Origin: a virus
Direction: 5' to 3' (one strand)
Length of the DNA: 64,000 nucleotides
IMG/VR virus record: IMGVR_UViG_3300045988_162908
Of the stretch, positions 12,053 through 59,010 are shown piece after piece; within the stretch, counting starts at the first letter, position 1; each line of letters begins with the position of its first letter. A program made the translations under genes and the position numbers. The notes beneath the pieces are model-generated. The model saw nothing but the letters and a program-made list of their open reading frames with translations, made no database searches and had not been told where the DNA came from.

Positions 12053-12640
12053 TTAGTCTTCGGGCAATAATACCACCCCTACCCTAACCTTCTGTCCACA
12101 ATGTGGGCAGAAGGTTTCTGCACGCATCATATTGTTTTCGGTACGGATATTGCCGTTTTCGGTACGGATATTGCCGTTTTCGGTACGGATATTGCCGTTT
12201 TCGGTACGATTATCGGCATTTTCCATCGACTTTTCGTCTGCTGTCATCAGTCTCTTTGGGTCGAGAAATTCCATCAATTCATCCACCTCTTCCTTCTTGA
12301 TGCTTGGGTAGGCTTTCTTCACCAAGTACTGCAATCTCAGAGCGAGTGGCGTGCTGATGTTATTTGCATAGTCGATGGCTTCTTTTATTTCCTGCTCCTG
12401 CACCTGCTCCATTTCTCTATCCTGCTTTTCTTTTTCCGCAGCCTCTTCTGCTGGGTCGGGATAGAAAAGGTCGGTGATGTCGCAGCCGATGCCTTCAGCT
12501 ATCTGCATGAGCTTGGCAACGGTAGGATTGCCTTTTATTACCGAGGTCAAACTTTGAGGAGAGAGACCTAATTTTTCGCCAAGTTGAACCTGGGTTATAT
12601 TGTGATCAGATAATGCTCTTTTTATATCTAAATGCTTCAT
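12053..12640 (-). CDS. XRE-family HTH transcriptional regulator (repressor candidate) with a C-terminal repeat and zinc-ribbon-like tail
   Basis: The N-terminus ITQVQLGEKLGLSPQSLTSVIKGNPTVAKLMQIAEGIGCDITDLF is a classic HTH_3. The C-terminus has NGNIRTE x3-4 and then CPHCGQK. It is divergent from a + strand promoter. Confidence 0.8.
   Translation of the reverse strand: MKHLDIKRALSDHNITQVQLGEKLGLSPQSLTSVIKGNPTVAKLMQIAEGIGCDITDLFYPDPAEEAAEKEKQDREMEQVQEQEIKEAIDYANNISTPLALRLQYLVKKAYPSIKKEEVDELMEFLDPKRLMTADEKSMENADNRTENGNIRTENGNIRTENGNIRTENNMMRAETFCPHCGQKVRVGVVLLPED
12131..12223 (-). repeat. 21-bp in-frame tandem repeat (~4 copies) inside the regulator gene
   Basis: GGTACGGATATTGCCGTTTTC at 12140, 12161 and 12182, a degenerate copy at 12203, and a partial copy before 12140. 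Confidence 0.9.
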
Positions 12641-28040: not shown

Positions 28041-28068
28041 TAATAACATATTAAAGTCGAAAACTGAA

Positions 28069-29025
28069 ATGAAGAAGAAGAACTTTTTAGTGGCTGCTCT
28101 GATGATGGCAGCAAGCGTGATGTCCCTTACATCATGCAGCGAAAACGAAGTAATCAATCAGTCTGAAGAACAAGATCAGAGTGCAGACCATGGTAAGGTT
28201 GCGGTCAAGTTAGTCTGCTCCCCTACTCCATCGGTAACTTACACCCGTGCATCCATGACAGCGAATGGCAAGCAGCTCACGGATCTCTACATCCTTGACT
28301 ACAACAAGGCAACCGGCAAACTGCTCCAGGTATTACACCAGACGAGCACGGCAGAAGACTTTGCCGAGCCTACGCTGAACCTCGATTACGGCAACCACAT
28401 TTTCAAGGTGATTGCTACGAGAAGCGCATCCCCTACCCTATTGGGTGAAGATGGCGCTTTATGGAACCTGCAGGAGAACACTGCTTTTGCGGTAGCCGAT
28501 GATGGCAATGTGCCTGTAATATGGACGAGTGACAAGACCTCTGATAGTTTCGGAGCTTCGCAGGATGTCAATGTAGGCATAGGCAAGGACCAGACCATCC
28601 ATATCCAGTTGGAGCGTATGGTAGCGAAATTGGTACTCAAGAATACGGGTACCTTTCCGGCTGATTGCAGCACCATCCAGTTGTCTCTCGACGAGTACAA
28701 GACCTGGAACTGGCAAAGCTTCTCCGTTATGGAAGCTGCAAAAAATCAGCGTATCTCTGACGCTTCGCAGTATGCTGGCCAAACGGGTAGTACTATTTCC
28801 TACTTCTTCCTGGCTCCTGATGGCGATGGCTACACTACGGACATTTCTCTCCAGATGAACCGCAAGGATAGCAACGAGCCGTATGCTGCCTTCACCATCC
28901 CGAATGTGCGCCTCCAGCGTAACCGTATCACTACCATAAGCGGTTCTTATTATGACCACCAGTCCGGCTTTTCCCTTACGGTAAATGATGCGTGGGAGGA
29001 AGAACAGAACAATGTAGAGTTTTGA
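28069..29025 (+). CDS. lipoprotein, possibly fimbrillin/Mfa-like
   Basis: ATG at 28069 gives MKKKNFLVAALMMAASVMSLTSC (lipobox). The body has the beta-rich, TRA-containing N-terminal pattern seen in Bacteroidota fimbrial lipoproteins (weak). Confidence 0.6.
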   Translation: MKKKNFLVAALMMAASVMSLTSCSENEVINQSEEQDQSADHGKVAVKLVCSPTPSVTYTRASMTANGKQLTDLYILDYNKATGKLLQVLHQTSTAEDFAEPTLNLDYGNHIFKVIATRSASPTLLGEDGALWNLQENTAFAVADDGNVPVIWTSDKTSDSFGASQDVNVGIGKDQTIHIQLERMVAKLVLKNTGTFPADCSTIQLSLDEYKTWNWQSFSVMEAAKNQRISDASQYAGQTGSTISYFFLAPDGDGYTTDISLQMNRKDSNEPYAAFTIPNVRLQRNRITTISGSYYDHQSGFSLTVNDAWEEEQNNVEF

Positions 29026-29080
29026 GTAAAGGTAAAAAGGTAAAAGAGTAAAAAGGTAAAAAGAGCATTCTTGCTTTTAC
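29026..29080. repeat. GTAAAAAG-type dispersed repeat (forward arm)
   Basis: GTAAAGGTAAAAAGGTAAAAGAGTAAAAAGGTAAAAAGAGCATTCTTGCTTTTACC immediately after the stop at 29025. Confidence 0.85.
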
Positions 29081-29091
29081 CGAGGATAAAG

Positions 29092-29301
29092 CGTGCGGAT
29101 ATGCTATTATGGAATTGCATATTCGCACGTTTCCATTATACCATATTACCATAATCAAAGATTTCCATAACAACAGATTTCCATAATTCAACGTTCATGC
29201 AAGAGTATCATTCCATAAACCCACAAACACACAAACGTGCATATATTTATGCGTTTATGGATTTATGTATTTGTTGATTTCAATATACAAATACATAAAT
29301 C
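29092..29301. repeat. centromere-like repeat region upstream of parA
   Basis: 13-bp near-perfect IR CGTGCGGATATGC / GCATATTCGCACG (29092-29104 / 29117-29129). TTCCATAA octamers in both orientations at 29107, 29163, 29179, 29211 and 29255, plus a degenerate TTCCATTA at 29131. Perfect 15-bp IR GATTTATGTATTTGT / ACAAATACATAAATC (29260-29274 / 29287-29301). Confidence 0.6.
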
Positions 29302-29465
29302 AACGTAGAAACATACACACTCATACATATAGAAATACATTCATACACCAACGAAGAAATAAACACATTAAGCAATAAAAGAATGAATAAATACACTAAT
29401 ACATATACAAATGAACTAATAAATGAAGAAATTTACGCATAAAAGCATTAAATATTTTAAATTTG

Positions 29466-29497
29466 TTTGGCGGTTTAAATTTAATTTCTTAAATTTG
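29466..29497 (+). promoter_or_regulatory. Bacteroidota promoter TTTG-N20-TAAATTTG for parA
   Basis: TTTG at 29466 and TAAATTTG at 29490. It is flanked by two copies of ACACAAACGTGCAT (29229 and 29525). Confidence 0.65.
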
Positions 29498-29661
29498 CAG
29501 TCATAAAAGCACAAAAACATAAAAACACAAACGTGCATTTGTATATTTGTGTATTCATGCACTTATGTGTATGCAGATTAGTGGATGTGTGTATTCGTGT
29601 ATTGTTTCCTGCATTGTCAGGCTAAAGAGAAGATAATAATAAATAACCAAAAATATAAGTT

Positions 29662-30537
29662 ATGGCAGAAACAAGATTGAAAGAAATCCTCGCCTTCGTA
29701 AATCACAAGGGAGGAGTTGGTAAGACAACAACAGTTCAGAGTTTGGCAACAGGTCTTCGTCGTTACGGCAAAGGTCATTTCGGTTTGGGTAAAGATGGCA
29801 AGGAGCGCAAGCCTCGCATCCTGCTAATTGACCTTGACCCCCAGTCAAGTCTCTCCTTCCTCTTTGGATGGAGTGAGGCAGAGAATGCCGGGCAGCCTAC
29901 CGTATATGATGCGATGATACAGCAGTCTCGTTTGCCTGTCTATCAGGTAAGAGAGGGCATATATCTCGCTCCTGCATCTTACAGATTGATCAACATCGAG
30001 CCTTTCCTCAACCAGATGCCGGTACCACGCAAGGCTTTGTTTAAGCTATTCAGTAAGCCGATGACGGAAGTTCGAGGCGACGAATTGACAACGGAAGGAG
30101 TTTCATCTATCCTGGAGGCTTTCGATTACGTTCTGATAGACTGCCCCCCAGCGTTATCTCTGCTTACGCATAATGCCCTATCGGTTGCATCGGGCGTGGT
30201 AATACCTATCCAGCTCGAAATGCTGGCAACAAAAGGTATTGCTGAAATTCTGAATGCGGTGCAGGAAACTCGTGAAGACTTGAATCCTGATATTGATATT
30301 CGCGGTTTGTTCATGGTAATGAGCAATGATCAGACAAGAGCCACTAAGCAGTTTAAGGAGTATCTGGGCAATAAGTTTGATGACTATATGTTTGATTCAT
30401 ACACTCGTCGAGATACGAAGATGGTGGAGGCACAAGCCCTCAATCAGGATATATTCTCTTATTCGCCTTATTGCAGGGTAGGACAAGACTATGAGAATTT
30501 TACGAAAGAGATATTGGCCAGTATGCCGAAAGATTAA
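29662..30537 (+). CDS. parA: ParA/Soj-family partition ATPase
   Basis: Deviant Walker A NHKGGVGKTTT at the N-terminus. Walker B-like VLIDCPP. 291 aa. Confidence 0.85.
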   Translation: MAETRLKEILAFVNHKGGVGKTTTVQSLATGLRRYGKGHFGLGKDGKERKPRILLIDLDPQSSLSFLFGWSEAENAGQPTVYDAMIQQSRLPVYQVREGIYLAPASYRLINIEPFLNQMPVPRKALFKLFSKPMTEVRGDELTTEGVSSILEAFDYVLIDCPPALSLLTHNALSVASGVVIPIQLEMLATKGIAEILNAVQETREDLNPDIDIRGLFMVMSNDQTRATKQFKEYLGNKFDDYMFDSYTRRDTKMVEAQALNQDIFSYSPYCRVGQDYENFTKEILASMPKD

Positions 30538-30585
30538 GGCACCGGACGTTATAGATAATGTATCATTTTAAAAAGAAACATAGAT

Positions 30586-30993
30586 ATGGCAAGACAAGCA
30601 TCGAATAATTTGAATAAGTTTAAAGGACTGGAAGACTCTCCAGCCATCCAAGGTATAGAAAGAATTTATGAGGCTAACGAGGAAGCTCACCAAAAGCGAG
30701 TTGCCGAAGCTTTGGAACAACAGCAGAACGGACAGGGTACCGCAGAGACGGACACTATGTCACAGACTGATGCACCTTCGCACTCTCCGGTCCCTCCTGT
30801 ATCATCTGCCCCTATTTCTACTCCCGAACCTGCTCCAGCGAAAAAAACTGGCAAGAAGACTCAGAACGGCATCACTATCTATGTGCCGATGAACTACTAC
30901 ATGCAGATATTACAGATGAAGATGGAGACGGGTGTTCCTATTAAGGATATTGCCCTGCAAGCTGTCATCGAGTACCTGAATAGACATAAATAA
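30586..30993 (+). CDS. partition adaptor / centromere-binding protein candidate with a C-terminal ribbon-helix-helix (ParG-like)
   Basis: 135 aa. Disordered P/S/T-rich middle. The C-terminus GITIYVPMNYYMQILQMKMETGVPIKDIALQAVIEYLNRH has a beta-alpha-alpha RHH pattern. It lies immediately after parA. Confidence 0.55.
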   Translation: MARQASNNLNKFKGLEDSPAIQGIERIYEANEEAHQKRVAEALEQQQNGQGTAETDTMSQTDAPSHSPVPPVSSAPISTPEPAPAKKTGKKTQNGITIYVPMNYYMQILQMKMETGVPIKDIALQAVIEYLNRHK

Positions 30994-31028
30994 AGGTAAA
31001 AGGGCAAAAGAGTAAAAAGGCTTTTGCT
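30991..31028. repeat. GTAAAAAG-type dispersed repeat (short forward arm)
   Basis: TAAAGGTAAAAGGGCAAAAGAGTAAAAAGGCTTTTGCT, overlapping the stop codon. Confidence 0.75.
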
Positions 31029-31050
31029 GGTAAATGAAAAGTCAGATTTC
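31029..31050 (+). repeat. outlying iteron copy (direct)
   Basis: GGTAAATGAAAAGTCAGATTTC. Confidence 0.8.
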
Positions 31051-31060
31051 TACCTTCTGA

Positions 31061-31099
31061 GGTACCGAAAACTATACCCCTCGGCACTATTTCGGTACC
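31061..31099. repeat. perfect 10-bp inverted repeat GGTACCGAAA-N19-TTTCGGTACC
   Basis: It lies between the two outlying iterons. Confidence 0.8.
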
Positions 31100-31155
31100 A
31101 ACTCACTACATTTGTGGCTAAGTTTAGGCGAAATCCTACTAAATCATTTTACCTT

Positions 31156-31176
31156 CAATCTGACTTTTCGTTTACC
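31156..31176 (-). repeat. outlying iteron copy (inverted)
   Basis: CAATCTGACTTTTCGTTTACC is the reverse complement of the iteron. It is followed by an ~80-bp AT-rich stretch (31180-31260). Confidence 0.8.
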
Positions 31177-31275
31177 AAAAAATGAAAACTTTAAATAGAA
31201 AATTATAAGATTATAGATATTATATATATTAGGAAAATCTTAATAGTTTGGTTTTCAGACACTTACAAAGTTACT

Positions 31276-31407
31276 GGTAAACGAAAAGTCAGATTGTGGT
31301 AAACGAAAAGTCAGATTGTGGTAAATGAAAAGTCAGATTGTGGTAAACGAAAAGTCAGATTGTGGTAAACGAAAAGTCAGATTGTGGTAAACGAAAAGTC
31401 AGATTTG
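31276..31407 (+). repeat. six tandem 22-bp iterons (origin of plasmid-type replication)
   Basis: GGTAAACGAAAAGTCAGATTGT x6, head-to-tail. One copy has AAATG and the last ends TTTG. The array abuts the rep start codon. Confidence 0.9.
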
Positions 31408-31409
31408 AT

Positions 31410-32702
31410 ATGATTGATGATAATGAAAACAAGGGTTTAGCCTGGATAAATACTCCTTTTTCACTCACGAAACTGGATAGACAATACTCTCTTTTTCAGC
31501 AAAATGTGTTGATGATAACAAGCACGCACCTACAGAAGTTTGTAGATGAGTACTTTTTAGAGAAAAGGCAGTTGGGCGATGCTCGTTCTGATTTTCTTTT
31601 TGAGCAAGGCGTGGACCATGCTGTGATGAATATCCCGCCTATTAAGATAGACATCCATGATTTCATTACTTGCGAGAATATGAGCTATCAGAAGTTGAGA
31701 TCGGAGCTAAAGACAAGCATTCTCGATATGACGGTGAAGAGTACGCTGCCCGATGGTAGCGATGAGTTTGCTCATATATTCAGCCGCATGAGTATTCCGT
31801 CATCGAAGAACGGATATACGACTAAGGACGGAAAGAAGGTGAACCGCATATTGGGATATATCACGCTTGAGATTGATCCGAAACTTTCTAAGCGGGTGTT
31901 TGATATGGGACAGGGGTATATTCACCATATATCTATGATAGCTAAGTTTGCTAAGAATGTGAATACCCCTCGTGTCTATATCTATCTTTTGCGACAGATA
32001 GGATTGAGCAGGAGTATGGATATAGCCGTACCCTTCCTGGAGCTGAAATCTTATCTTGGTTTAGTGGAACTTGATTGTAATAAGAAAGAAATCTTAAAGA
32101 ATGAATCTGGAGAGCCTGTTATGAACAAATATCCTAAATTTTCTCAGTTTAGAAAGCAAGTTCTTGATGTGGTATGCAGAGATTTGCAGAGAATGGAAAA
32201 GCTATCCCAGACAGATATTGTGTTTGACGAATTGAAAGATGAGGATATTATCTATAAATCGGGTAAACGGAAAGGTGATCCGGACTTCATCAGATTTCGC
32301 GTGAAGCGCACAGTAGTAGGTGAGAATCATTTATCTAAGGATAAAAATACCGATATTGCCGCTACTCTGAATGAGCGATACAAGCAGAACAGCGTACAGA
32401 AGACCGGGAAACTGGTAGAGGGTGATATATTCGCCCATGTGCATCAGCCTACGGAAAGCAAGATTATAACCGAGAGCGGACAGGGTACCGACAAGTGGAA
32501 GGCTTTCTGTAAGCTCATTATAGGCGACGCTGAAAAATCACTGGTTTCCCGCATTTCCTTTGTCGGTATGAAGAACGACAGGTTCTGCGTGGAGTGCAGC
32601 GATGAGGACTTTGATATGCTTCGAAAGTTGGGCATCGAGGAAAAAGCTAAGGAGTTCTTTGACTGCAAAGGTTCTTTTGCACCAGTATTCTACCGAGGGT
32701 AG
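31410..32702 (+). CDS. iteron-type replication initiator (Rep_3/RepA-like)
   Basis: ATG at 31410 (MIDDNENKGLAWINTPFSLTKLDRQYSLFQQNVLMITS...) preferred over the GTG at 31362, which lies inside the iterons. The N-terminal pattern resembles Rep_3 initiators. Context is iterons upstream and parAB upstream of those. Confidence 0.7.
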   Translation: MIDDNENKGLAWINTPFSLTKLDRQYSLFQQNVLMITSTHLQKFVDEYFLEKRQLGDARSDFLFEQGVDHAVMNIPPIKIDIHDFITCENMSYQKLRSELKTSILDMTVKSTLPDGSDEFAHIFSRMSIPSSKNGYTTKDGKKVNRILGYITLEIDPKLSKRVFDMGQGYIHHISMIAKFAKNVNTPRVYIYLLRQIGLSRSMDIAVPFLELKSYLGLVELDCNKKEILKNESGEPVMNKYPKFSQFRKQVLDVVCRDLQRMEKLSQTDIVFDELKDEDIIYKSGKRKGDPDFIRFRVKRTVVGENHLSKDKNTDIAATLNERYKQNSVQKTGKLVEGDIFAHVHQPTESKIITESGQGTDKWKAFCKLIIGDAEKSLVSRISFVGMKNDRFCVECSDEDFDMLRKLGIEEKAKEFFDCKGSFAPVFYRG

Positions 32703-32706
32703 TCCT

Positions 32707-32879
32707 AAAGGTAAAAAAGTAAAAAGGTAAAAAGGTAAAAAGAGCCTGGCGGGATATTGCTGTTCTTTTTACCTTTTGCCTTTTATAGCAAGAATATTCT
32801 TTTTACTCTTTTACCTTTTTACTCTTATCAGCAAGAATGTTCTTTTTACCTTTTTACTCTTTTACCTTTTTACCTTTAA
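32707..32879. repeat. GTAAAAAG-type dispersed repeat complex (forward arm plus three inverted arms)
   Basis: The forward arm is AAAGGTAAAAAAGTAAAAAGGTAAAAAGGTAAAAAGAGC. The inverted arms include TTCTTTTTACCTTTTGCC, AGCAAGAATATTCTTTTTACTCTTTTACCTTTTTACTC and AGCAAGAATGTTCTTTTTACCTTTTTACTCTTTTACCTTTTTACCTTT. Confidence 0.9.
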
Positions 32880-32913
32880 AATTCTTTGTCCTTCCCATTT
32901 ATTTCTTTCTTTG

Positions 32914-32921
32914 TATCTTTG
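32914..32921 (+). promoter_or_regulatory. -7 promoter box TATCTTTG
   Basis: Exact TAnnTTTG followed by CA, 29 nt before ATG 32950. Confidence 0.5.
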
Positions 32922-32949
32922 CACCAGAAAAATTAAGAAATGAATACGT

Positions 32950-33561
32950 ATGAAACGGAAAGAGATTATACTACTACTGATGATGTCGGTAGTGATGGTG
33001 CTTACAGGCTGCGCTTCTTCTCGTCGAGTGACTGATATGAGTCACCAGGAAGTGAAGGACAGCATGAGGACAGAGCAGACGGATAGTGTACGCAAGACGG
33101 TGGTATCATCGGATAGCGTGCAGAAAAGTACACAATCGACGGTGCAGGTATCGTCTTCCACTACTGAAGGTGATAGCCTCTCTGAAACCATCCATGAGCT
33201 GATAACTGAGACCACGGATGCGCAAGGCAACAAGACGACCACCACGGATAGGACTATCCAGCGCAATTATGGCTCACAGAAACAAAGCAGTTCTCAGTTA
33301 ACTGCCAACCACCAACGGCATGAAATTAAACAGATGCAGCAGAGCGTGGATAGTATTGCACTAAGCGATAAGCGTGATGTGGGTACACACTGGGCAATCA
33401 ACGACAGTTTATCGGATAGGCAGGAGAAGAATACGGAAGATGTCAAAAGACAGTCTTTCATTGAAAAAGCATCCAAGAATGCCTTCGCTCTATTCGTCAT
33501 TCTGGTCATCGTTCTGGTACTTACATCATTCAAAAAACATACAGACAATGGGAAAGGGTAA
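32950..33561 (+). CDS. lipoprotein with an S/T/Q-rich body and a C-terminal TM anchor
   Basis: MKRKEIILLLMMSVVMVLTGC lipobox. Low-complexity middle. Hydrophobic FALFVILVIVLVLTSF near the end. Confidence 0.65.
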   Translation: MKRKEIILLLMMSVVMVLTGCASSRRVTDMSHQEVKDSMRTEQTDSVRKTVVSSDSVQKSTQSTVQVSSSTTEGDSLSETIHELITETTDAQGNKTTTTDRTIQRNYGSQKQSSSQLTANHQRHEIKQMQQSVDSIALSDKRDVGTHWAINDSLSDRQEKNTEDVKRQSFIEKASKNAFALFVILVIVLVLTSFKKHTDNGKG

Positions 33562-34608: not shown

Positions 34609-35301
34609 TTATTTATCATCGTGCATCAGTGGGTCGGCAGCCATACCGACATTGCCAGAGCCATATCTTGCATCAGTCATGCTGAGTATGCGGTGGGTGA
34701 GGGTGGCAATCTCTCGTTGCTGTTCTGCAATGAGCGTCTGTTGCCCTGCCATCTGTTTCTGTTGCTCTGCGATAATATCGAGCATCTTGTTAAGCGTTGA
34801 TAGGCTCACGTCTGATTCCTTTTCTGGAAGAGACTGATTGATGAAAGCATGATGAGCAGATGATGACTGATGGATGTCTCCAGTCTGAACATTCTGCCTA
34901 TAGGCCTTGATGTTTGTCAGTCCGGGTATGATGGATTTCATGCGATCCACATCCATAGGATCACGCAGGGCACGACCGCCGTTAGGTCGTCTCTCATTTT
35001 GTGAGATATAGCCGCCATTCGGTTCAAACTGGTCATTAATGTCTGGTTGCACATAGTCAAGTTCATCTATGCTTTTATCGTATTTAGCATCCGTATCAAC
35101 GATGAAAGCGGTGATAGGTACCTGGAACGTATTGCAGAATCGCAGGAGTTGGATAGTAGGGATAGGGGCTTTCATTCTTTCCCAATTACCCAGCCTCGTA
35201 TTGCTTGTTGTACCTATGGCATGAAGAATCTGCCTATCCGTAATATCTCTATTCGCTTTTATCCATTTTTCGAGGAAGCTATAATTATAACAATATTTCA
35301 T
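34609..35301 (-). CDS. HTH (XRE-like) regulator with a C-terminal coiled coil
   Basis: Start at M14 (MKYCYNY...). ITDRQILHAIGTTSNTRLGNWERMKAPIPTIQLLRFCNTFQVPITAFI is HTH_3-like. The C-terminal part is Q-rich and heptad-like. It is divergent from the 35435 promoter, with operator-like 10-mers between. Confidence 0.65.
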   Translation of the reverse strand: MKYCYNYSFLEKWIKANRDITDRQILHAIGTTSNTRLGNWERMKAPIPTIQLLRFCNTFQVPITAFIVDTDAKYDKSIDELDYVQPDINDQFEPNGGYISQNERRPNGGRALRDPMDVDRMKSIIPGLTNIKAYRQNVQTGDIHQSSSAHHAFINQSLPEKESDVSLSTLNKMLDIIAEQQKQMAGQQTLIAEQQREIATLTHRILSMTDARYGSGNVGMAADPLMHDDK

Positions 35302-35356
35302 ATCACTAATAATTAAAAAGGTGAATAACTCTAAAAACACACTCTAAACTAAATAT

Positions 35357-35468: not shown

Positions 35469-35978
35469 ATGACAAAGGAAATTATAGAAAAAGTTACGCA
35501 GCAGAACAATTCGTTAGACGTTAACGACCTAAATGCTGAAGAGAAGAAGAATTTAGCTGAGTTTTTATCGGCTAAGGGCTTCACTGACTCTACTTTTTAC
35601 CTTCGATTCTTTCAGAAAGGTTTCGATGCTTGGGAAATTCTGGGTATTAATAACTGTAAAAGTCAGTTTTTAGGTATGCCTGATATAGGTAAGGTATTAC
35701 TTGAGTACGTAGAGCGTGATGCCTTGGGTAACGAGATAGGCGATAAGGGTTATCTCTATACTCTTGCCCAGAGTGATAAGCCGGGTGTATTTTATGCCTG
35801 TTTGAAGCAGGCAGCAAACGGCTTATGTATGAAACTCTACTCCTTCATGGAGGAACGAGGTATGAGTCGTACCACCATCATCAAGCGTTTCTCGTCTGAT
35901 GACTGGAAAGAGTGGGAAAAGGTAGGCATCAAAGCCTTGCTGGAAGAGTTCTTAAAAGGTAAAAAAGTAAAAGAGTAA
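35469..35978 (+). CDS. hypothetical protein
   Basis: ATG at 35469 (MTKEIIEKVTQQ...), 27 nt after the -7 box. The C-terminus ...KGKKVKE is encoded by the start of a GTAAAAAG repeat. Confidence 0.65.
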   Translation: MTKEIIEKVTQQNNSLDVNDLNAEEKKNLAEFLSAKGFTDSTFYLRFFQKGFDAWEILGINNCKSQFLGMPDIGKVLLEYVERDALGNEIGDKGYLYTLAQSDKPGVFYACLKQAANGLCMKLYSFMEERGMSRTTIIKRFSSDDWKEWEKVGIKALLEEFLKGKKVKE

Positions 35979-36094
35979 AAAGGTAAAAAGCAGTCTTACT
36001 GAAAAAGGTAAAAACCTCGCATGAATCCAGGGAACAAGGAAAAGAAGCAGGAATGCTCTTTTTACCTTTTTACCTTTTTACTTTTTTACTTTTC
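35955..36094. repeat. GTAAAAAG-type dispersed repeat complex (forward and inverted arms)
   Basis: AAAGGTAAAAAAGTAAAAGAGTAAAAAGGTAAAAAG ... GAATGCTCTTTTTACCTTTTTACCTTTTTACTTTTTTACTTTTC. Confidence 0.9.
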
Positions 36095-36106
36095 AAAGAT
36101 GAAACG

Positions 36107-36832
36107 ATGATTGACATAACTATTGATTTTGAAACCTGTGCGCTCCCAGCTACCGCAGCCATCATGAGTGTTGGCGCGGTAGCGTGGAAGCGCTACGATA
36201 CCGAAAATCCGTTCTTCGAGAAAAGTGACGGATTGCTGAGGTACCCAACCTTTTCGGCAAACGTCGATTTGCGAAGCTGCTTTGTGAAAGGCTTCACTTT
36301 TGACCAGAAAACTGCTGAATGGTGGTCACAGCAGAGCGAAGAAGCAAAACAGGCTTTGCTCGATGATGATGATGGGGACAATCCTTGTCTTCCGATAGAC
36401 GTGGTTATCACGGACTTGCTCGGTTGGATAAAGGATGAGGTGCTGGCAACGCTGGGAGATACAGACCTTTGCCTTTGGGCGCAGGGTACTGATTTCGACG
36501 TCGCCATACTAAGATATGCCTGCTACAAGTTGGGCATCGAGTTCAATGTCAAGCATACTCAGTTCCGTGACCATCGCACGTACTATTTGGAGGGTGCGCG
36601 TCTCCTATGGGAGGCAAACAATACGTTTGATCACAATAGTGTTCCTTTTAGTGTTGATTGGGCTTATGGGCAAACTCAAGACTATCAGGATATTGCCGAT
36701 GACGGTGCAGCTCATGACCCTATCTTTGATTGCAAGCGCAGTATATATAGCACTTGGCAGATGATGAAGAGAATGCGAGCTTTCCCGATTCGGTTATCTG
36801 AACTCGAAAAACAGAATGTCTGCGGGTCTTGA
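36107..36832 (+). CDS. DEDDh 3'-5' exonuclease (DnaQ-like fold)
   Basis: Exo I DITIDFET, Exo II QGTDFDVAILR and Exo III AAHDPIFDC (H-x4-D). ATG at 36107. Confidence 0.7.
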   Translation: MIDITIDFETCALPATAAIMSVGAVAWKRYDTENPFFEKSDGLLRYPTFSANVDLRSCFVKGFTFDQKTAEWWSQQSEEAKQALLDDDDGDNPCLPIDVVITDLLGWIKDEVLATLGDTDLCLWAQGTDFDVAILRYACYKLGIEFNVKHTQFRDHRTYYLEGARLLWEANNTFDHNSVPFSVDWAYGQTQDYQDIADDGAAHDPIFDCKRSIYSTWQMMKRMRAFPIRLSELEKQNVCGS

Positions 36833-36853
36833 CGTTTTATTGCAGCAAGAGTT

Positions 36854-37276
36854 ATGAAAAGAAGATACGACTATCTGGGCATGAAATATACGCCCAATAG
36901 ACAACATCTGAAGGCATCGGGGCAAAGGTCTAAACATGCCTTTATTCATCGCATCGCTTACACCGAGACGATGAGAGGCATCAGGGATGATATTCCCACC
37001 TTGCTCTTCTATGCTCCATTCGCATTATGCTATGATGCTGCCCAATACATCTATGATATTCTGAAGAATCACGTAGAAGATATTCGGGTTGTTCCCTCGC
37101 ACAGTTGCCGTGTCAAGAACGGCAAATGCTACTGGAGAACAGAGGTGCAGGTAATAGGGCTGAATACGGAGCTTTTGAACTTTGAGAGCTTCACCAGAAT
37201 GCTGATACATCGGATGCAGGTTATCTGCAACTGCAAGATACGGCATCTGAAACTTGAGACATTTTTGAACACATAG
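36854..37276 (+). CDS. hypothetical protein
   Basis: 140-aa ATG ORF. Confidence 0.6.
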   Translation: MKRRYDYLGMKYTPNRQHLKASGQRSKHAFIHRIAYTETMRGIRDDIPTLLFYAPFALCYDAAQYIYDILKNHVEDIRVVPSHSCRVKNGKCYWRTEVQVIGLNTELLNFESFTRMLIHRMQVICNCKIRHLKLETFLNT

Positions 37277-37328
37277 CAACATTTTTACTCATATAACATT
37301 TATCATACAAAAGTTGTACTGAAAAAAG

Positions 37329-37357
37329 CTCCTTCGTTGGGAAACGCGGGAGTTTTT
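37329..37357 (+). terminator. conserved terminator hairpin (copy A)
   Basis: CTCC-tt-CGTT-GGGA-AACG-cg-GGAG followed by TTTTT. GNRA-type loop. 22/24 identical to 61387-61410. Confidence 0.6.
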
Positions 37358-37908
37358 AAATATGAGTAACGACGTGTTTTGATACGTTCCGAATGTTTAT
37401 TTTTTTTAGACAACCGAGCCATCGGTGAAATGGCAGGAAGACCGGAAGGGCGATAGTGGTGCGGTAGAGGATAATCCCTGCCACCACAATAAACGGCTCT
37501 CAAAACGACGCAGGAATAGTCTGATTAAAAAGCCTGAGAATCCTGTTTCAAAAAGTGACCGTGAAATTTGGCGTGTCGCCCGAGGTCTTCTTTATAGTGT
37601 GAAATAATGATATTGACGAATAGACCCATGAGAGGCGAAGGATGGCAGTAATGCGTCCTGAACTCGTTCATACGCGATCCTGTGCCCGAAATAGCAATGA
37701 TACCTGAATGGATAGGTGGGAGATGTATCAATTTTACATAATTTTATGTGTCGTGGCATTACTGATACATTCCTATTGAGGCGCTCGGACAGGTACATAG
37801 CTGGAGGCTTATAACACTGGAAAGCAGGGTCGTCATCACTTAAGTTTGGCCTCGCCTATCTCATTGGGTCTATTTTCGTCGATACTATAAATATACGATA
37901 GTAAGAAA

Positions 37909-40900
37909 ATGATATATCATCCTATAATCAACCAGCTTGCCAATCTCGACATGGCTTTCCTTGTGAAGCCTGCCGATGAGCAGCATATAGCGAATCAGAC
38001 TGCCTGCTTCTGCCCGTTCTGTCAGAAGAAGGCGGATGATGGTATGGATGATAGCGATACACCTGCCCAACAGACTCCGCATTTCATTATCTATAATAAT
38101 GAGCGAGGCGGTATGTACGACGGTGTGGGTGTGGATGACGACAACCAGGCAGGGCATGGAGCCTTGCGCTGGATGTGTACCAAGACCGGCAAAAGCGGTT
38201 ATGGAGCATTGGAACTCTATGCTGCCATGCGCAACCTGCCGATGCACGGGGCAAGTCTTTTGCGCCTATGCCATGACCTCGTGGTGAGGGTGTATGGCGA
38301 CAATGAGAAGACAAGGGTCAAATGGCCGATGCTCTTTGCTAAGATGGACTATCGTACCATTGCCACACAAACTATTGAGACGTTTTCATTTTTACCAAAA
38401 GTTGACTTCAATCCCCAGGAGCTCGCAGCTTTGGGGTGCGATGTCACAATGGTAAAGGGAATCCCTCAATTTGGGTTTGGTAAGGATTTCAGCACGACCA
38501 TGCTGAATGATGATTTCCGCATCTATGCCGTGGATAAAGTGACCTTGCCCAACGTGGTGAGAAACGGGCAATTAGCGAGTGAGGTGATCTATGGTACTCC
38601 ATGGAACCCTCTTTTCGTCTGCTTCGCTACAGACGTGATAGCGCCTCAAGGCAGTTGCGGATGTTTCTTCCGTCCGGCTATGCAGCAAGACCCGATAGTC
38701 TTCTCTACCTGTGAGGATCATAGCGTAAGAAAGGTGAGCAAGTGGCTGATGGGTGATAAGGTTTTCACTTATGCGATGGACCATCGGAGTAACAACTCTA
38801 CTGCCGTTCATTCGGCAATAGAAAAACTGCAACCCGATGAGCCTTATACAGAGACTAAGGAGATATGGGTAGAGAATGAAACGAAGGAAGGAGCGCCGAA
38901 AGGTACTTATCATAGCGAAGAGGAACCCATAGAAGTGGGTGACATCAAGGCGCAGAATATCGTATTCTGCAGAACACCGGAAGACGCATTGAGTATCTAT
39001 TACGCCATGCGTTCCCTGCGTCAGGATAAGGCGCAGGACAGCCATTTTCAGAAATACTGCTGGTACCACGTAGCCTTCTCGCTTGGCAGAAGAAACTTCT
39101 GGTATATCGAGCGGGGGCAGTGGAGGCAGGAAAAGCTCGACTTCAATGCTGTGCAGTATCAGAAGATGAAGCGATTTGCCGAGAGGGTCATCATGCTTTA
39201 CCCTAACGACATCGCCAGCCAGAGGGATTGTGGAGCCATCGCAACCAAGTATTGCGATATTTGCTATGCTACATTGCCAGATGGCTTTAGAAGTAGATAT
39301 AACCAAAGGTGGAACTGGTTGTATGGTTGCTCACCACGAAGCGTGAGAGATTATCTGATGTGCTATCACATGGATGATGCCGACAACTTCAAGTTCGACC
39401 ACGATATAAGGTTGCCGCTATACTCAAGACTGCGAGGTGCCAACAATACGGACCCATTCGAGATAGAATATCCCCGTGACCCTCGAAGTGGCAAACCAAA
39501 ACCGCCTACCTGTAAGGTATCGCCTACTAAGGTTTGGCTTTTTATGACGTGCCATGGATATTACAGAATGATAGACCCTGAGAGTACCGACCTTGTAGGT
39601 CAGTATATCCATCTGGATAGATGTTTCGTTGAATACATCGACCAGAAGAGTATCATTCAGGCAACGAAGACCCAACTCCTGCAGTTTACAGAACAGAGTT
39701 GGCGGCATAATAACCAGGAGCGCAAGATGATGTCAGACTGCGCCAACCTGATAGACAAGAATTTCAGCGAGAAATCGGCTGGCGGCTTGCAGGGTATGGT
39801 GATAGACTTCACCGAAAGTTTCGATGCTCATACGGAATATTTCTTCTTCCGCAATGTGGCGTTGAAGATTACTCCCGAAGTCATCATGCCAGTCAGCTAC
39901 GACCGCCTGAATTTCTTTATCCCAGCCTTGGCAAAGAAACCGTATGATTTCACGATGAGGGTGTTCAATCCTCCTTTCGTAATCAGCGAGAGTCAGGAAT
40001 ATAAGGATAGGGTAGCAGCCATCGCCCAAGAGGAAGCGCAGGTTAACGAGGACGGTTCACCGGTCTTTTCAAGAGAGGAAATCGACCAGAAAAAAGCTGA
40101 GCTTAAAGACTGGGCGCAGACCTTCCGCTGGCAAGTGGACTGGCAAGGCAAGCAGGAAAAAGAACTTTGGCCGATACTGAGAGTGATTCGAGGCTGCTGC
40201 AATATGCAGTGGCGACTGGAGCAGGATTGCATTCGCAACAAAGAACCGATGTCTGCCGAAGCCATCGCCGACATCAACTCCCATTTTGCCAACATGATTT
40301 CCTGTTTGGGAAGAATCTGCTATCGCTCATGGGCCAACATGCAGAGTATCTGCCCTTATCTCCTCGAAGATGAGGTGGAGGACGAGAAGCAGGCAAGTGG
40401 TGGTTCGGGTAAATCACTCATGGTGAATCTCGTGGTAGGTTCAGCAGTGAATATACTTCGTGTCGATATGAAGGACTTCATAACGATAGCCGATGCAAAG
40501 TTCAGCCTGTCTGACTTGTTGATATATCCAGGCAAGTTTAGAGTAGTGCATTGGGAAGATAAGCCTTCTGGTTTCCCGATGAAATACTTCTATAATAAGG
40601 TAACGGCGGGAGCCAAGGTAGAACGAAAGTTCGGCGACCCTATCGTCTTCAAGCTGGAAGAATCACCGTTAAACGTGATTACCAGTAACTCGCAGTTGAG
40701 TGATGACGATGAGAGTACCATCGGACGTTTTCCACTGGTATCATTATCTGATAGATTCTGCCGTGATAACCCTATGCAGCATAAGGTGGCGCGTTCCCCA
40801 AAGGAAGTGATGAAAAATCTCGTGACAGACCCAGAAGAGTTGAATGAGCGAGACCGCAATCAGGCGATATACATCTGCGCCCTTGCCGTTCAGTTCATCA

Positions 40901-41598
40901 TGCGCTATCACACCTTTGTTATCGCTCCTCAGAAGAACGTACAGCGAAGATTGATGGTAAGAGAACTGACCGAGAATACGGTGAACTACTTCGAGTGGTT
41001 CTTCAGCCGTAACGAGGTCTATTCAGCACCTATCTGCGCAGACGAAATGTTCAATGAGTTCATGCGAGATTGGGCTGATGCCAGTGAGGGTAAGAGTAAG
41101 GAGTATAGCCGAGCCACCTTTAAGAAGAAAATCAGGAAGTATTGCAAGAACATGAACATCATTTGCAATCCTGAAAACCTTCTTGTAGGTGAGGACAACA
41201 AGCGCCATGGTTGTTTCAAGCTTCGAGCCTGGATAACGGAGGAATACTTCGTAGGACGGGAATGGGAGAACGATGATAGCGTTGAGCCAAAGCATATCCG
41301 CAAGGTAAAGACGAGTAAGCACGTCTATTTCTTCTTCCGCAGTGGCAAGGATCATATCCCTGAAAGCTATGACGAGTTGAAACGTATCGCCAAAGAGTAT
41401 GTCGATGGTCCCGACCCATTACCTTATCGTGATGATGATGGCAACATCGTTACACTTACTACCGAAGAGGAGGAACGCTGGAAGGCATTCACCTCTCGTA
41501 AGCAGGGTAGGAGACAAGCCATACCAAATGGCAGTGATAGCAACAACAATGCTGCTGCTACGGTAGATGAAATAGATAAGAGTAGCCTACCTTTTTAA
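37909..41598 (+). CDS. primase-helicase-like replication protein (zinc-finger primase region plus P-loop NTPase)
   Basis: 1229 aa. The N-terminal CFCPFCQKK...TPHFIIY...WMCTKTGKSGYGALELYAAM resembles a primase zinc-binding region. Walker A QASGGSGKS lies at ~aa 825. Its neighbours are an exonuclease and a sliding clamp. Confidence 0.6.
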   Translation: MIYHPIINQLANLDMAFLVKPADEQHIANQTACFCPFCQKKADDGMDDSDTPAQQTPHFIIYNNERGGMYDGVGVDDDNQAGHGALRWMCTKTGKSGYGALELYAAMRNLPMHGASLLRLCHDLVVRVYGDNEKTRVKWPMLFAKMDYRTIATQTIETFSFLPKVDFNPQELAALGCDVTMVKGIPQFGFGKDFSTTMLNDDFRIYAVDKVTLPNVVRNGQLASEVIYGTPWNPLFVCFATDVIAPQGSCGCFFRPAMQQDPIVFSTCEDHSVRKVSKWLMGDKVFTYAMDHRSNNSTAVHSAIEKLQPDEPYTETKEIWVENETKEGAPKGTYHSEEEPIEVGDIKAQNIVFCRTPEDALSIYYAMRSLRQDKAQDSHFQKYCWYHVAFSLGRRNFWYIERGQWRQEKLDFNAVQYQKMKRFAERVIMLYPNDIASQRDCGAIATKYCDICYATLPDGFRSRYNQRWNWLYGCSPRSVRDYLMCYHMDDADNFKFDHDIRLPLYSRLRGANNTDPFEIEYPRDPRSGKPKPPTCKVSPTKVWLFMTCHGYYRMIDPESTDLVGQYIHLDRCFVEYIDQKSIIQATKTQLLQFTEQSWRHNNQERKMMSDCANLIDKNFSEKSAGGLQGMVIDFTESFDAHTEYFFFRNVALKITPEVIMPVSYDRLNFFIPALAKKPYDFTMRVFNPPFVISESQEYKDRVAAIAQEEAQVNEDGSPVFSREEIDQKKAELKDWAQTFRWQVDWQGKQEKELWPILRVIRGCCNMQWRLEQDCIRNKEPMSAEAIADINSHFANMISCLGRICYRSWANMQSICPYLLEDEVEDEKQASGGSGKSLMVNLVVGSAVNILRVDMKDFITIADAKFSLSDLLIYPGKFRVVHWEDKPSGFPMKYFYNKVTAGAKVERKFGDPIVFKLEESPLNVITSNSQLSDDDESTIGRFPLVSLSDRFCRDNPMQHKVARSPKEVMKNLVTDPEELNERDRNQAIYICALAVQFIMRYHTFVIAPQKNVQRRLMVRELTENTVNYFEWFFSRNEVYSAPICADEMFNEFMRDWADASEGKSKEYSRATFKKKIRKYCKNMNIICNPENLLVGEDNKRHGCFKLRAWITEEYFVGREWENDDSVEPKHIRKVKTSKHVYFFFRSGKDHIPESYDELKRIAKEYVDGPDPLPYRDDDGNIVTLTTEEEERWKAFTSRKQGRRQAIPNGSDSNNNAAATVDEIDKSSLPF

Positions 41599-41609
41599 AA
41601 GATAAAAAA

Positions 41610-41867
41610 ATGGCAAAGAAAGAAGAAACAAAAAAGAAGAAAGGCATAAGGGTAGCCAATCGCCAAGCGTGGGTAGATACCTTCGTGTATCTCTGCCCTT
41701 GTCACCGAGGAGGAACGGGACCTGGTGAGTATTGTGAAAATCCGGATGGTACCAGAACCAACTGCACGGGTAGATGCACCTATACCGGTAGCGGAGCTTG
41801 CGAACAGGTAACGCAGTTCTTCAATACATACATTAAGTTCGTCAATAAAGAAATTGAATTTATATAA
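41610..41867 (+). CDS. hypothetical small Cys-rich protein
   Basis: 85 aa, with 7 Cys in LCPCHRGGTGPGEYCENPDGTRTNCTGRCTYTGSGAC. Confidence 0.55.
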   Translation: MAKKEETKKKKGIRVANRQAWVDTFVYLCPCHRGGTGPGEYCENPDGTRTNCTGRCTYTGSGACEQVTQFFNTYIKFVNKEIEFI

Positions 41868-41881
41868 TAAATAGAAGTAAA

Positions 41882-59005: not shown

Positions 59006-59010
59006 TTTTT

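Follow-up and report, generated by a model that had tools for sequence, protein, structure and literature searches.

The window, i.e. the whole 64-kb stretch of DNA analysed here, contains a gene for a ParA-type ATPase, a gene for a small partner protein, a series of iterons and a gene for a replication initiator, bracketed by an inverted repeat. The features of this par-rep region are the following.

29026–29075, + strand: AAAGGTAA-type intergenic array, left arm of the 49-nt inverted repeat bracketing par-rep
29202–29661, + strand: parA upstream region with direct, short and inverted repeats
29662–30537, + strand: ParA partition ATPase, 291 aa (Pfam AAA_31, 8.9e-36, and CbiA, 9e-12; PHROG 164, 1.1e-49)
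30586–30993, + strand: small partner protein, 135 aa (alignment, PDB sequence match, AF2 model, Foldseek)
31028–31049, + strand: isolated direct iteron with 2 mismatches, start of the origin region
31061–31124, + strand: single 20–22-mers GGTACCGAAAACTATACCCC (31061–31080) and TCACTACATTTGTGGCTAAGTT (31103–31124)
31156–31177, − strand: inverted iteron, a perfect copy (iteron search)
31175–31250, no strand: AT-rich stretch adjoining the tandem array, 86–88% A+T against 57.8% for the window
31275–31406, + strand: six tandem 22-bp iterons, the last ending 4 bp upstream of the rep start codon
31410–32702, + strand: replication initiator (Rep), 430 aa (remote homology and predicted fold)
32704–32883, no strand: AAAGGTAA arrays in both orientations, able to pair into a long hairpin and containing the right arm (32830–32878)

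A preliminary description of this DNA had named a ParA with the motif KGGVGKTT, and this deviant Walker A motif is indeed located at residues 15–22 of a protein matching AAA_31 and PHROG 164, which is labelled 'ParA-like partition protein'. As the motif starts already at residue 15, ParA is without an N-terminal DNA-binding domain and is therefore type Ib-like. It shows 41% identity to the ParA of the S. copri plasmid NZ_CP085934. In the alignment, the small partner begins with 48 conserved aa, continues with a variable linker of Pro/Ala/Ser and ends in a probable ribbon-helix-helix (RHH) domain. Its sole PDB sequence match is ORF56 of pRN1, which we take to be a CopG-like RHH protein, with E=0.048 for the sequence alone and E=0.014 with the profile. 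The AF2 model consists of an extended segment followed by helices at residues 102–115 and 119–133, and Foldseek places CopG and Arc on top with a target-normalised TM of up to 0.66, all with E>1; the top matches are presumably mostly RHH proteins (CopG, Arc and PutA, with CdbA and MatP less certain). The RHH partner proposed earlier is plausible in fold, from the resemblance to ORF56, CopG and Arc, but statistically weak at these E-values, and the protein is a candidate centromere-binding protein. In the type Ib system ParF-ParG-parH of TP228 the ATPase also is without an N-terminal DNA-binding domain and has repeats upstream of its gene, and the small partner likewise combines a flexible N-terminus with an RHH-like fold at the C-terminus. 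Compared with typical type Ib ATPases the phage ParA is longer (291 aa) with an insertion after Walker A, and the likeness of its partner to ParG lies in the domain layout, the RHH evidence being below significance.

The region upstream of parA contains a 61-nt direct repeat (29214–29274 and 29510–29570), 8/16-bp repeats, inverted repeats and three TAnnTTTG motifs (29458, 29490 and 29542). In two related loci, L016 and L008, the sequence from 29202 onward moves with the par genes and 28046–29201 is replaced, and across relatives the repeat type upstream of parA varies with the type of partner protein. This region may hold a promoter together with centromere or operator repeats for the small partner. 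The arms of the bracketing inverted repeat, 29027–29075 and 32830–32878, are 98% complementary. Arrays of the AAAGGTAA type number 13 in the 64-kb window against 0 in 20 shuffles, and the hairpin arrays downstream of rep are a probable terminator or module boundary.

The six tandem 22-bp iterons of the preliminary description agree with Tandem Repeats Finder, which gives TGGTAAACGAAAAGTCAGATTG in 6.0 copies at 31275–31405 with 98% matching, and the two copies at 31028–31049 and 31156–31177 come in addition. With up to 3 mismatches allowed, all 8 copies in the window are located between the small ORF and rep, and 100 shuffles gave 0 matches. The 20–22-mers GGTACCGAAAACTATACCCC and TCACTACATTTGTGGCTAAGTT are each the unit of a tandem array in a sister clade, and TCACTACATTTGTGGCTAAGTT contains a DnaA-box-like TGTGGCTAA (31113) and a TAnnTTTG motif (31107). 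The AT-rich stretch is a candidate DNA-unwinding element. Close relatives have 3–7 iteron copies, and among the related viral loci the iteron sequence shifts with the Rep clade.

The listed rep ORF begins at a GTG (31362) within the iterons; the true start is likely the ATG at 31410, which makes Rep 430 aa long, like most homologues. Rep alone has no match in Pfam, PHROGs or NCBIfam. In an alignment of the Rep of the window with 29 relatives, Rep3_C is matched by 24 and Rep3_N by 4 of the 30 sequences, and the family profile matches R6K pi with E=7.8e-6 over WH2. An AlphaFold model (pLDDT 76) gives a Foldseek probability of 1.0 to RepE54, pi and RctB, with target-normalised TM of 0.62–0.70 to 7soz, 2nra and 1rep. 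The Rep_3-like initiator suggested earlier consequently stands by remote homology (Pfam matches of the relatives, pi profile and fold), but not by a direct match to a family model. Rep comprises two winged-helix domains like those of Rep_3, RepE and pi and, at its C-terminus (about residues 358–430), a conserved domain specific to the family. The two winged-helix domains and the 22-bp direct repeats beside the gene are shared with RepE of F and pi of R6K, which lack the extra conserved C-terminal domain of about 75 residues.

The closest parallels to this arrangement are found in Segatella plasmids. On the circular plasmid unnamed2 of S. copri DSM 18205 (NZ_CP085934), parA is followed by a small ORF, seven 22-bp iterons and rep, whose product, a 'RepB family plasmid replication initiator', shares 58% identity with the phage Rep; identities to the Segatella plasmid Reps range from 43 to 58%. 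In GTDB representative genomes the Rep family is nearly confined to Segatella and Prevotella, and among the matches are replicons with a plasmid or extrachromosomal label (HDD04, HDD05, G8 and 1A8_2). Blanco-Miguez et al. 2023 (PMC10635906) report both large extrachromosomal elements and circular plasmids from closed genomes of the S. copri complex. The Segatella plasmids thus share replicon family, gene order, Rep C-terminal domain and host clade with the phage. In the regions read they carry metabolic and other cargo and are without virion genes, and they have further iteron arrays downstream of rep, whereas the iterons of the phage are located only upstream. In Segatella plasmids with a related Rep the iterons are also 22 bp and start with GGTAAA[CT] as in the phage, while the small partner proteins are unrelated and not alignable with that of the phage; the 22-mers are therefore tied to Rep and not to the partner. 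PLSDB gave no match to the module at the DNA level. Modules of this kind replicate genuine circular plasmids and extrachromosomal elements of S. copri, and judged by such sequence comparison the phage replicon is of a working type.

Relatives of the element are catalogued in IMG/VR as viral contigs. Of the 77 related viral loci, in which Rep identity ranges from 25 to 100%, 72 have ParA 1–2 kb upstream of Rep; the module is therefore old in this phage lineage and kept by selection, rather than inserted by chance. Every locus read agrees in the sizes and order of the flanking phage genes, and IMG/VR contig 132449 has the same par-rep backbone with a different tail module. The par and rep types have been recombined between related viral genomes, which fits what is expected for incompatibility determinants.

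The phage nature of the element is evident from genes for a tape measure, head maturation protease, endolysin, holin-like protein, virion and minor-tail proteins and a diversity-generating retroelement (DGR). Features of the window outside the par-rep region that bear on its lifestyle are listed below.

Within 3383–8079, + strand: DGR target, a tail or virion protein (variable repeat, VR, 6082–6179; PHROG 23208 and 4120)
6772–6866, + strand: DGR template repeat (TR), VR/TR pair with mismatches at template adenines
6913–8079, + strand: DGR reverse transcriptase (RVT_1, 8.5e-16)
12053–12640, − strand: Cro/C1-type HTH regulator (HTH_3, 3.5e-8), on the strand opposite to the surrounding genes
36053–43075, + strand: phage replication genes, i.e. 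3'-5' exonuclease, 1229-aa primase/TOPRIM-like protein and DNA polymerase III beta clamp

The DGR, already noted in the preliminary description, has the reverse transcriptase as well as the adenine-mismatched VR/TR pair and looks functional by its sequence; the block of tail target and reverse transcriptase marks the element as a phage. Two HTH regulators had been claimed, one of which is clear (12053–12640), and a second on the minus strand (34609–35340) has a weak match only. The former is a candidate lysogeny repressor by its one HTH domain. The exonuclease matches Rv2179c-like (5.8e-24) and PHROG 255, the primase/TOPRIM-like protein has a tblastn match to the primase/TOPRIM gene of Polaribacter phage Leef_1, and the beta clamp contains DNA_pol3_beta domains; this set may constitute a lytic replication module. 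A terminase had also been reported, for which no model gave a match, and the recognisable lysis genes are located outside the window and not within it as described. No sequence relation to catalogued phages was found. Many ORFs match no family, and an unusual recombinase could be hidden among them.

The par-rep phage is common, and its host is the human gut bacterium Segatella (Prevotella) copri. Contigs of 103–108 kb are circular permutations of each other, and in one of them both ends fall within the iteron array and overlap exactly over 55 bp. The summed gene distances amount to 107,254 bp, compared to contigs of 107,226–107,314 bp, so that the assemblies yield a circular map of ~107.25 kb. 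The ~43 kb outside the window was tiled from contigs with identical or near-identical genes, ~27 kb of it from contig 146368, which belongs to a close relative with a 100% identical Rep, and not from the window's own contig. As in the preliminary description, HMM scans of the window with Pfam and PHROGs yielded no match to any family of integrases, recombinases, excisionases or transposases, and the same holds for the tiled remainder. Neither a tRNA nor an att-like feature is present in the window, and there is no host DNA in any locus read. The comparison made with N15 has no support, as no scanned protein matched a protelomerase family. A tailed phage of ~107 kb infecting the S. copri complex carries a plasmid-style replication and partition module, and each computational check called for in the preliminary description came out in its favour. 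With the plasmid-type module, the circular map and no integrase, the predicted phage-plasmid is supported in silico, and from these we infer the plasmid state in the host.

We consider it likely that 29.0–32.9 kb is a complete low-copy plasmid maintenance module and that the phage persists as a low-copy circular plasmid prophage rather than inserted in the chromosome. Rep monomers would bind the 22-bp iterons and, with host factors, open the adjoining AT-rich stretch, the presumed unwinding site, for theta replication. The array abutting the rep start, together with the two isolated upstream copies of which one is inverted, could provide autorepression and copy control by handcuffing. ParA and the small RHH partner would act on the repeats upstream of parA as a putative centromere, so that the copies are segregated at division. 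Without an integrase the prophage should stay a circular plasmid, and the primase, clamp and exonuclease of the phage may carry lytic replication, giving a presumptive split between lytic and plasmid modes.

Against a phage-plasmid, a circular map without host flanks is equally expected of a virulent phage, and none of the isolate genomes shows the par-rep phage as a plasmid. A virulent or carrier-state phage is an unlikely alternative, in which Rep and iterons would be a productive origin like lambda O at ori-lambda, and ParA and its partner would position or distribute replicating genomes in a prolonged non-lysogenic infection. Iteron-binding initiators can serve lytic replication, as lambda O does; moreover, no integrase was found, neither a toxin-antitoxin nor any other addiction module was recognised, and the contigs are unit-length and circularly permuted like free phage. 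No DNA polymerase was recognised among the scanned proteins, and the phage may therefore always need a host replisome recruited by Rep. ParA and a partner beside an initiator are nevertheless a hallmark of low-copy inheritance, and we know of no role for them in lytic growth. The entire module is also syntenic with stable Segatella plasmid replicons, and the additional isolated and inverted iterons point to copy limitation, iteron arrays with such added copies being copy-limiting devices. The separate primase, clamp and exonuclease for productive replication, the opposite-strand Cro/C1-type regulator, and the shuffling of par and rep types, which fits selection on incompatibility, further argue for the plasmid prophage.

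That the phage is an ordinary integrating temperate one, with an integrase or other recombination route missed and par-rep as passenger or back-up, is quite improbable. The many ORFs without family throughout the genome would allow it, as would two over-length contigs (170,862 and 185,680 bp, read only within 10 kb of the gene) that might hold host DNA, and one plasmid-type Rep of the family is located in a 3.14-Mb S. copri contig (L417). Against this, recombinases of the tyrosine and serine types rank among the families that are easiest to detect, and Pfam and PHROGs gave none in the window or the tiled remainder. The window lacks tRNA or att-like features, the listed contigs of 93–111 kb are near unit length with scant room for host flanks, and retention in 72 of 77 relatives speaks against a passenger. 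An assembly chimera of a Segatella plasmid and a phage is barely credible. Contig 132449, joining the par-rep backbone to another tail module, indicates that mosaic or chimeric joins occur in the group, but the collection of independent assemblies has the exact Rep in 55 of its blocks and the exact ParA in 216, the flanking phage genes are uniform in all loci read, and Rep is as divergent from plasmid Reps as given above with no DNA-level match in PLSDB; a chimera was rejected in practice on these grounds.

Phage P1 is a ~100-kb tailed phage that is maintained as a unit-copy circular plasmid without chromosomal integration. Its oriR has RepA with the incC and incA iterons, partition is by ParA-ParB-parS, and the lytic replication functions are separate. 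The combination of an iteron-binding initiator and ParA-type partition in a tailed phage of ~100 kb is common to both. The ParA of P1 is of type Ia and carries a DNA-binding domain at its N-terminus, its ParB is an HTH protein and iterons lie on both sides of repA, whereas in the Segatella phage ParA begins at Walker A, the partner is RHH-like and the iterons are only upstream of rep. P1 also has Cre-lox for cyclisation and dimer resolution and the phd-doc addiction module, in contrast to the Segatella phage, where no recombinase or toxin-antitoxin was recognised. In Bacteroidota, Schmidtke et al. 2024 (PMC10983915) proposed that crAssphage (Carjivirus communis) is a phage-plasmid, on the basis of two genes of the RepL type, a toxin-antitoxin pair, and data from expression and culture; iterons did not turn up in a text search of that paper. 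Both are gut Bacteroidota phages without integrase and with a proposed extrachromosomal persistence, but the Segatella phage differs from crAssphage in its canonical ParA, Rep_3 and iteron replicon, its tape measure and its host genus.

The partition and replication genes of the phage lie together on the plus strand, in the following order.

29662–30537, plus strand, parA, 291 aa, with KGGVGKTT at residues 15–22
30586–30993, plus strand, gene for a small partner protein, 135 aa, directly downstream of parA
31275–31406, six tandem 22-bp iterons
31410–32702, plus strand, rep, with ATG as the likely start and 430 aa, the length of most homologues (the ORF is listed from a GTG at 31362)

The Rep protein itself (31410–32702) has no match in Pfam or PHROGs (both with E up to 0.01) or in NCBIfam (E up to 1), and the description of the gene product as a Rep_3-like initiator, which was made from the sequence before any database search, therefore rests on its family and on structure. 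A search of a collection of 5.8 billion proteins gave 57 relatives, and when the 30 sequences of an alignment (the window Rep and 29 diverse relatives) were scanned singly, 24 matched Rep3_C (PF21205, best 3.9e-6) and four matched Rep3_N (PF01051, best 1.6e-6). The family profile matches the R6K pi chain 2nra_C with E=7.8e-6 across the second winged-helix domain. An AlphaFold (AF2) model built on the family alignment, with a mean pLDDT of 75.9, has a predicted tandem winged-helix (WH1-WH2) fold, and its 41 PDB matches at E<=0.001 are exclusively RepE54/Rep iteron-complex chains, pi or RctB, with probability 1.0 and a target-normalised TM of 0.62–0.70 to RepE and pi. The family hits, the pi profile match and the model matches together indicate that Rep is a divergent two-winged-helix initiator. 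Unlike RepE and pi, it carries an extra C-terminal domain (about residues 358–430; 32482–32702), which accounts for about half of the columns that are invariant in the family alignment and is conserved across the whole family, plasmids included. The last 220 nt of rep are 82–85% identical in DNA between phage clades, and the first two-thirds of the gene, the DNA-binding part, are not alignable in DNA between them.

The 416-bp spacer before rep contains the six tandem copies of TGGTAAACGAAAAGTCAGATTG already recognized in the preliminary description; they are 98% matching and abut rep, with the end of the array 4 bp before the ATG. At up to three mismatches the iteron occurs eight times in the 64 kb, always within this spacer and in none of 100 shuffles, with one non-tandem copy at 31028, in direct orientation, and another at 31156, which is inverted and perfect. 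The A+T content just upstream of the tandem array reaches 86–88%, against 57.8% window-wide. The order is thus an isolated iteron, short conserved elements, the inverted iteron, the AT-rich stretch, the iteron array and the initiator gene, as in a textbook iteron-type origin, where Rep would bind the iterons and the DNA would open at the AT-rich stretch. The steady rise of GC skew follows gene orientation and is uninformative on the origin. Close relatives have arrays of 3–7 copies of the same iteron abutting rep, and in clades with 34–39% Rep identity the arrays are made of different 22-mers, so the direct repeats adjoin rep and change with the Rep type.

The leader at 31028–31177 contains one copy each of three different 20–22-mers, the third of which includes a DnaA-box-like TGTGGCTAA and a TAnnTTTG motif. 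In sister clades (loci L047, L052, L059, L060, L061, L062 and L063) it is another of the three that has been amplified into a tandem array, and one or two perfectly conserved copies of the window iteron are retained, with flanks that are only 70–84% identical.

ParA, named in the preliminary description from its KGGVGKTT motif, is borne out by matches to AAA_31 (8.9e-36) and to PHROG 164 'ParA-like partition protein' (1.1e-49), and NCBIfam partition models match it below their cut-offs. The protein has the deviant KGGxxK[ST] Walker motif and no N-terminal DNA-binding domain, as expected for a ParA of type Ib. Its small partner has a conserved N-terminus of 48 residues, a Pro/Ala/Ser-rich linker of variable length and 45 conserved C-terminal residues. 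The only PDB sequence match, a weak one, is pRN1 ORF56 (E 0.048 alone, 0.014 with a profile), which we take to be an RHH protein of the CopG type; in the model two helices come after an extended segment, and the best Foldseek matches are CopG, Arc, PutA, CdbA and MatP (target-normalised TM at most 0.66, all with E>1), the first three presumably RHH proteins and the last two less certainly so. The small protein is consistent with a ribbon-helix-helix protein on these three counts and significant on none. Several repeat families are found upstream of parA in 29202–29661, and the type of repeat near the par operon changes with the type of partner protein in the relatives; the region is a candidate for the centromere.

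The module is homologous to and syntenic with replicons labelled plasmid or extrachromosomal in closed Segatella genomes. A tblastn search of PLSDB with Rep gave three records, all from Segatella. S. copri DSM 18205 has a circular plasmid of 58.9 kb on which a ParA, a 99-aa ORF, seven 22-bp repeats and a 'RepB family plasmid replication initiator' follow one another in this order, with further repeat arrays downstream of rep; its Rep and ParA are 58 and 41% identical to those of the window, respectively, and the small proteins of the two give no alignment. A scan of GTDB with the Rep family profile, using one genome per species, found 26 loci; Segatella copri or Prevotella stands in the title of 23, and the replicons titled plasmid or extrachromosomal among these loci include HDD04 (135 kb), HDD05 (72 kb), G8 (90 kb) and 1A8_2 (40 kb). 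The iterons of the plasmid relatives are likewise 22 bp and have the start GGTAAA[CT] in common with the window iteron. The tandem 22-mers were also considered as the centromere of the small protein, but this is less likely, because plasmids with a related Rep and an unrelated small protein share the period and the GGTAAA[CT] start, so that the 22-mers go with Rep. By descent, the replicon belongs with the replicons of Segatella plasmids and extrachromosomal elements. Strain names and record titles suggest that the plasmids and extrachromosomal elements that Blanco-Miguez et al. described (PMC10635906) include the HDD and HDE replicons. In S. copri H-2632 a plasmid-type Rep, 58% identical to the window Rep, is found with iterons inside a chromosome-sized contig of 3.14 Mb (L417; NZ_JAVSCC010000001.1, 2,615,248–2,636,522), which suggests that a plasmid or extrachromosomal element has integrated or that the contig is mis-joined.

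The phage itself is carried by metagenome contigs alone, and its one close match in GTDB is a 4.5-kb MAG contig (L403). Megablast of 29000–33000 against catalogued phages and plasmids, and tblastn of Rep against catalogued phages, gave no match, and there is therefore no named phage relative in the catalogued-phage collection. Close relatives in GenBank are solely uncultivated 'MAG TPA' virus records, where the Rep relative of the same 90% cluster has an automatic label derived from the structure of a protein-DNA replication complex.

In IMG/VR, 98 stretches encode relatives of Rep with 25–100% identity, almost all on contigs of 50–110 kb. A ParA homologue is located 1–2 kb upstream of rep in 72 of the 77 loci kept, and in three of the remaining five the contig breaks off shortly upstream of rep. 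A ParA with 94–95% identity is paired with a Rep of 34–39% in L470, L471, L475–477, L481, L482 and L484, and a Rep with 90–92% identity with a ParA of 42% in L443, L454, L456, L457 and L468. From the conservation of ParA with Rep, the mixed combinations and the pattern of DNA identity along rep it follows that the module is an old, selected and recombining part of the phage lineage.

The exact Rep and ParA of the window, and two further window ORF products of 667 and 933 aa, are encoded on many metagenome contigs of 102–108 kb. On contig k127_9916 the genes for the 667-aa and 933-aa proteins are in the opposite order to that in the window, and the two distances between them sum to 107,254 bp, in agreement with contigs of 107,226–107,314 bp; the two ends of a scaffold of 102,983 bp both fall within the iteron array and overlap exactly over 55 bp. 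The map is therefore circular, or circularly permuted, with a length of about 107 kb. The 43 kb outside the window were tiled from L013 and L317, which are loci on contigs with the exact 667-aa and 933-aa proteins, and from L152, L161 and L324 on contig 146368, whose Rep is 100% identical. The following phage genes were assigned.

3383–6184, virion or minor-tail protein, 933 aa (PHROG 23208 and 4120)
3383–8079, DGR, with VR 6082–6179 at the C-terminus of the 933-aa tail protein, TR 6772–6866 and reverse transcriptase 6913–8079
36053–43075, replication genes for an exonuclease, a 1229-aa primase/TOPRIM-like protein and a beta clamp
window, minus strand, HTH_3 regulator
start before the window, fibre of 1859 aa, the end of which is the first ORF of the window (1098 aa)
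L317 1689–3194, just upstream of the window start, ketoacyl-ACP synthase (PF00109, PF02801), then an acyl carrier protein (weak PP-binding match)
tiled 43 kb, tape measure, 1849–2072 aa (PF10145; PHROG 25337 and 28)
tiled 43 kb, head maturation protease (PHROG 53, 1e-20)
tiled 43 kb, LysR regulator (L161 14616–15593), a full-length family member among head genes
tiled 43 kb, endolysin (PHROG 315, 1.2e-37)
tiled 43 kb, holin-like protein
tiled 43 kb, primase-like protein
tiled 43 kb, guanylate kinase and thymidylate synthase
tiled 43 kb, two DNA methylases and PAPS reductase

Virion and lysis genes of a tailed phage are thus present alongside plasmid replication and partition genes, and this arrangement recurs in independent assemblies. 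The DGR of the preliminary description looks complete, with a reverse transcriptase and a VR/TR pair whose mismatches fall at template adenines. It also listed lysis genes in the window; the recognizable ones, for the endolysin and the holin-like protein, are located in the tiled stretch outside it. The terminase of that description was not recovered, as PHROG and Pfam scans of the window and the tiled 43 kb found no terminase, portal or capsid, and PDB sequence searches for these with the 667-aa, 627-aa and 1229-aa proteins gave nothing usable. The head maturation protease has only distant relatives, in phages of Flavobacterium and Polaribacter.

It is unusual for a phage to carry a ketoacyl-ACP synthase and acyl carrier protein, which here adjoin the tail fibre genes, or a LysR regulator. 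The replication proteins comprise two primase-like proteins, a 3'-5' exonuclease and a beta sliding clamp (36053–43075; L152 16553–17617), and no DNA polymerase or helicase is recognizable among the genes of the phage, which may recruit the host polymerase via its own clamp. Contig 3300045988_132449 (82,685 bp; L072, L237) has the same par-rep backbone (Rep 99%) and a different structural arm, with a second type of tape measure (PHROG 9959, 6.4e-57) and a fibre of 2427 aa. Among the best 80 of the 155 relatives of this tape measure almost all are on other viral contigs, of 43–94 kb, and the contig reflects either a tail module exchanged between two phage groups or a chimeric assembly. It was dropped as a source for the upstream tiling, having a different tail module and no similarity to the other tiling, and contigs with the exact 933-aa protein of the window were used in its place. 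Two contigs with the module exceed the length of the map, namely ERZ27246448:k141_20124 (L430; 170,862 bp) and a contig of 185,680 bp carrying ParA P0180; both have ordinary phage sequence within 10 kb on either side of the gene, the part read, and the excess length could be a concatemer or a host junction.

No integrase, resolvase, large serine recombinase, transposase, excisionase or protelomerase was matched by Pfam or PHROG models in the window, in agreement with the preliminary description, or in the tiled 43 kb, within the sensitivity of HMMs on a genome where many ORFs are without any match and where part of the tiling comes from a near relative. The precomputed Pfam tables of the retrieved contigs list no integration family, and scans of the window for tRNA and Rfam families were empty. 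The break of one contig falls inside the iterons.

Phage genes and plasmid rep and par genes in the same replicon, with no match to an integrase or transposase, are among the features of a phage-plasmid as Pfeifer and colleagues reportedly used the term in 2021, another being occurrence as a separate replicon in a bacterial cell or closed isolate genome, and we regard it as probable that the module is the maintenance system of a plasmid prophage. The phage would then persist as a circular, low-copy plasmid, and its set of primase, clamp and exonuclease would serve lytic growth. The main alternative is a virulent or carrier-state phage, for which Rep and the iterons are an ordinary origin. That would leave unexplained why a ParA pair is conserved, why the iterons have a copy-limiting layout and why the region is syntenic with plasmids. 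The lifestyle had been likened to that of P1 and N15. The likeness to P1 holds in function, as both are phages of about 100 kb with an iteron initiator and partition by ParA, but the window phage has another type of partition, no recognized cyclisation recombinase or addiction module, and a different sequence. The likeness to N15 finds no support, with no protelomerase family matched by the scanned proteins and a circular assembly map.

In the open literature searched no phage-plasmid of Segatella or Prevotella is described, and the sole proposal returned for Bacteroidota is crAssphage; the present phage would be a second, clearer case in this phylum. It involves no new mechanism and is of clear interest to gut-phage and Segatella biology. 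Segatella copri is among the most prevalent bacteria of the human gut, and possession of a ready-made plasmid replicon would explain how a widespread 107-kb phage persists in it without an integrase. The replicon is related to that of the large extrachromosomal elements in which S. copri species differ, and phage and element may compete or recombine. To our knowledge there are few genetic tools for Segatella, and the stretch at about 29.0–32.9 kb offers a small and well-delimited candidate replicon for shuttle vectors. According to an essay (PMC11652159), obligate anaerobes, with S. copri as an example, have few phages or none. Lifestyle predictors keyed to integrases may call such phages virulent, a point on phage-plasmids also made in a preprint on the gut phageome (10.1101/2025.02.07.636470).

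A more speculative idea, to which we give little credence, is that the phage lineage runs a system for diversification of incompatibility in which single non-cognate 22-mers act as decoy iterons. The par and rep cassettes would be exchanged independently between genomes, and the DNA-binding two-thirds of Rep would be swapped along with the iteron array while the conserved C-terminal domain stays. Each origin leader would keep one copy of each of the 22-mers from which sister clades build their arrays. These decoys would act by titrating or handcuffing initiators, either those of rival phage-plasmids or those of the large extrachromosomal elements resident in S. copri. If so, replicon incompatibility, beyond receptor or immunity specificity, would decide which phage and extrachromosomal element share a strain.

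Thirteen arrays of the 8-mer AAAGGTAA, with 4–5 units on either strand, are found at gene boundaries in the window, and none in 20 shuffles. Their positions include the following.

10022–10187, AAAGGTAA array
11085–11128, AAAGGTAA array
29026–29065, AAAGGTAA array
30992–31020, AAAGGTAA array
32704–32746, AAAGGTAA array
32797–32883, AAAGGTAA array
35952–35992, AAAGGTAA array
36053–36096, AAAGGTAA array
58284–58319, AAAGGTAA array
59008–59038, AAAGGTAA array

None of the arrays coincides with the recombination breakpoints of relatives, which are at 28045 and 29202. A pair of 49 nt (29027–29075 and 32830–32878, 98% complementary) brackets the par-rep module; it was considered as the ends of a transposon-like cassette and is more simply one pair of this genome-wide family. 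Forward arrays start at or just past stop codons, and pairs of forward and reverse arrays could fold into hairpins of about 40 bp, the arrays being candidate terminators, regulator sites or recombination boundaries.
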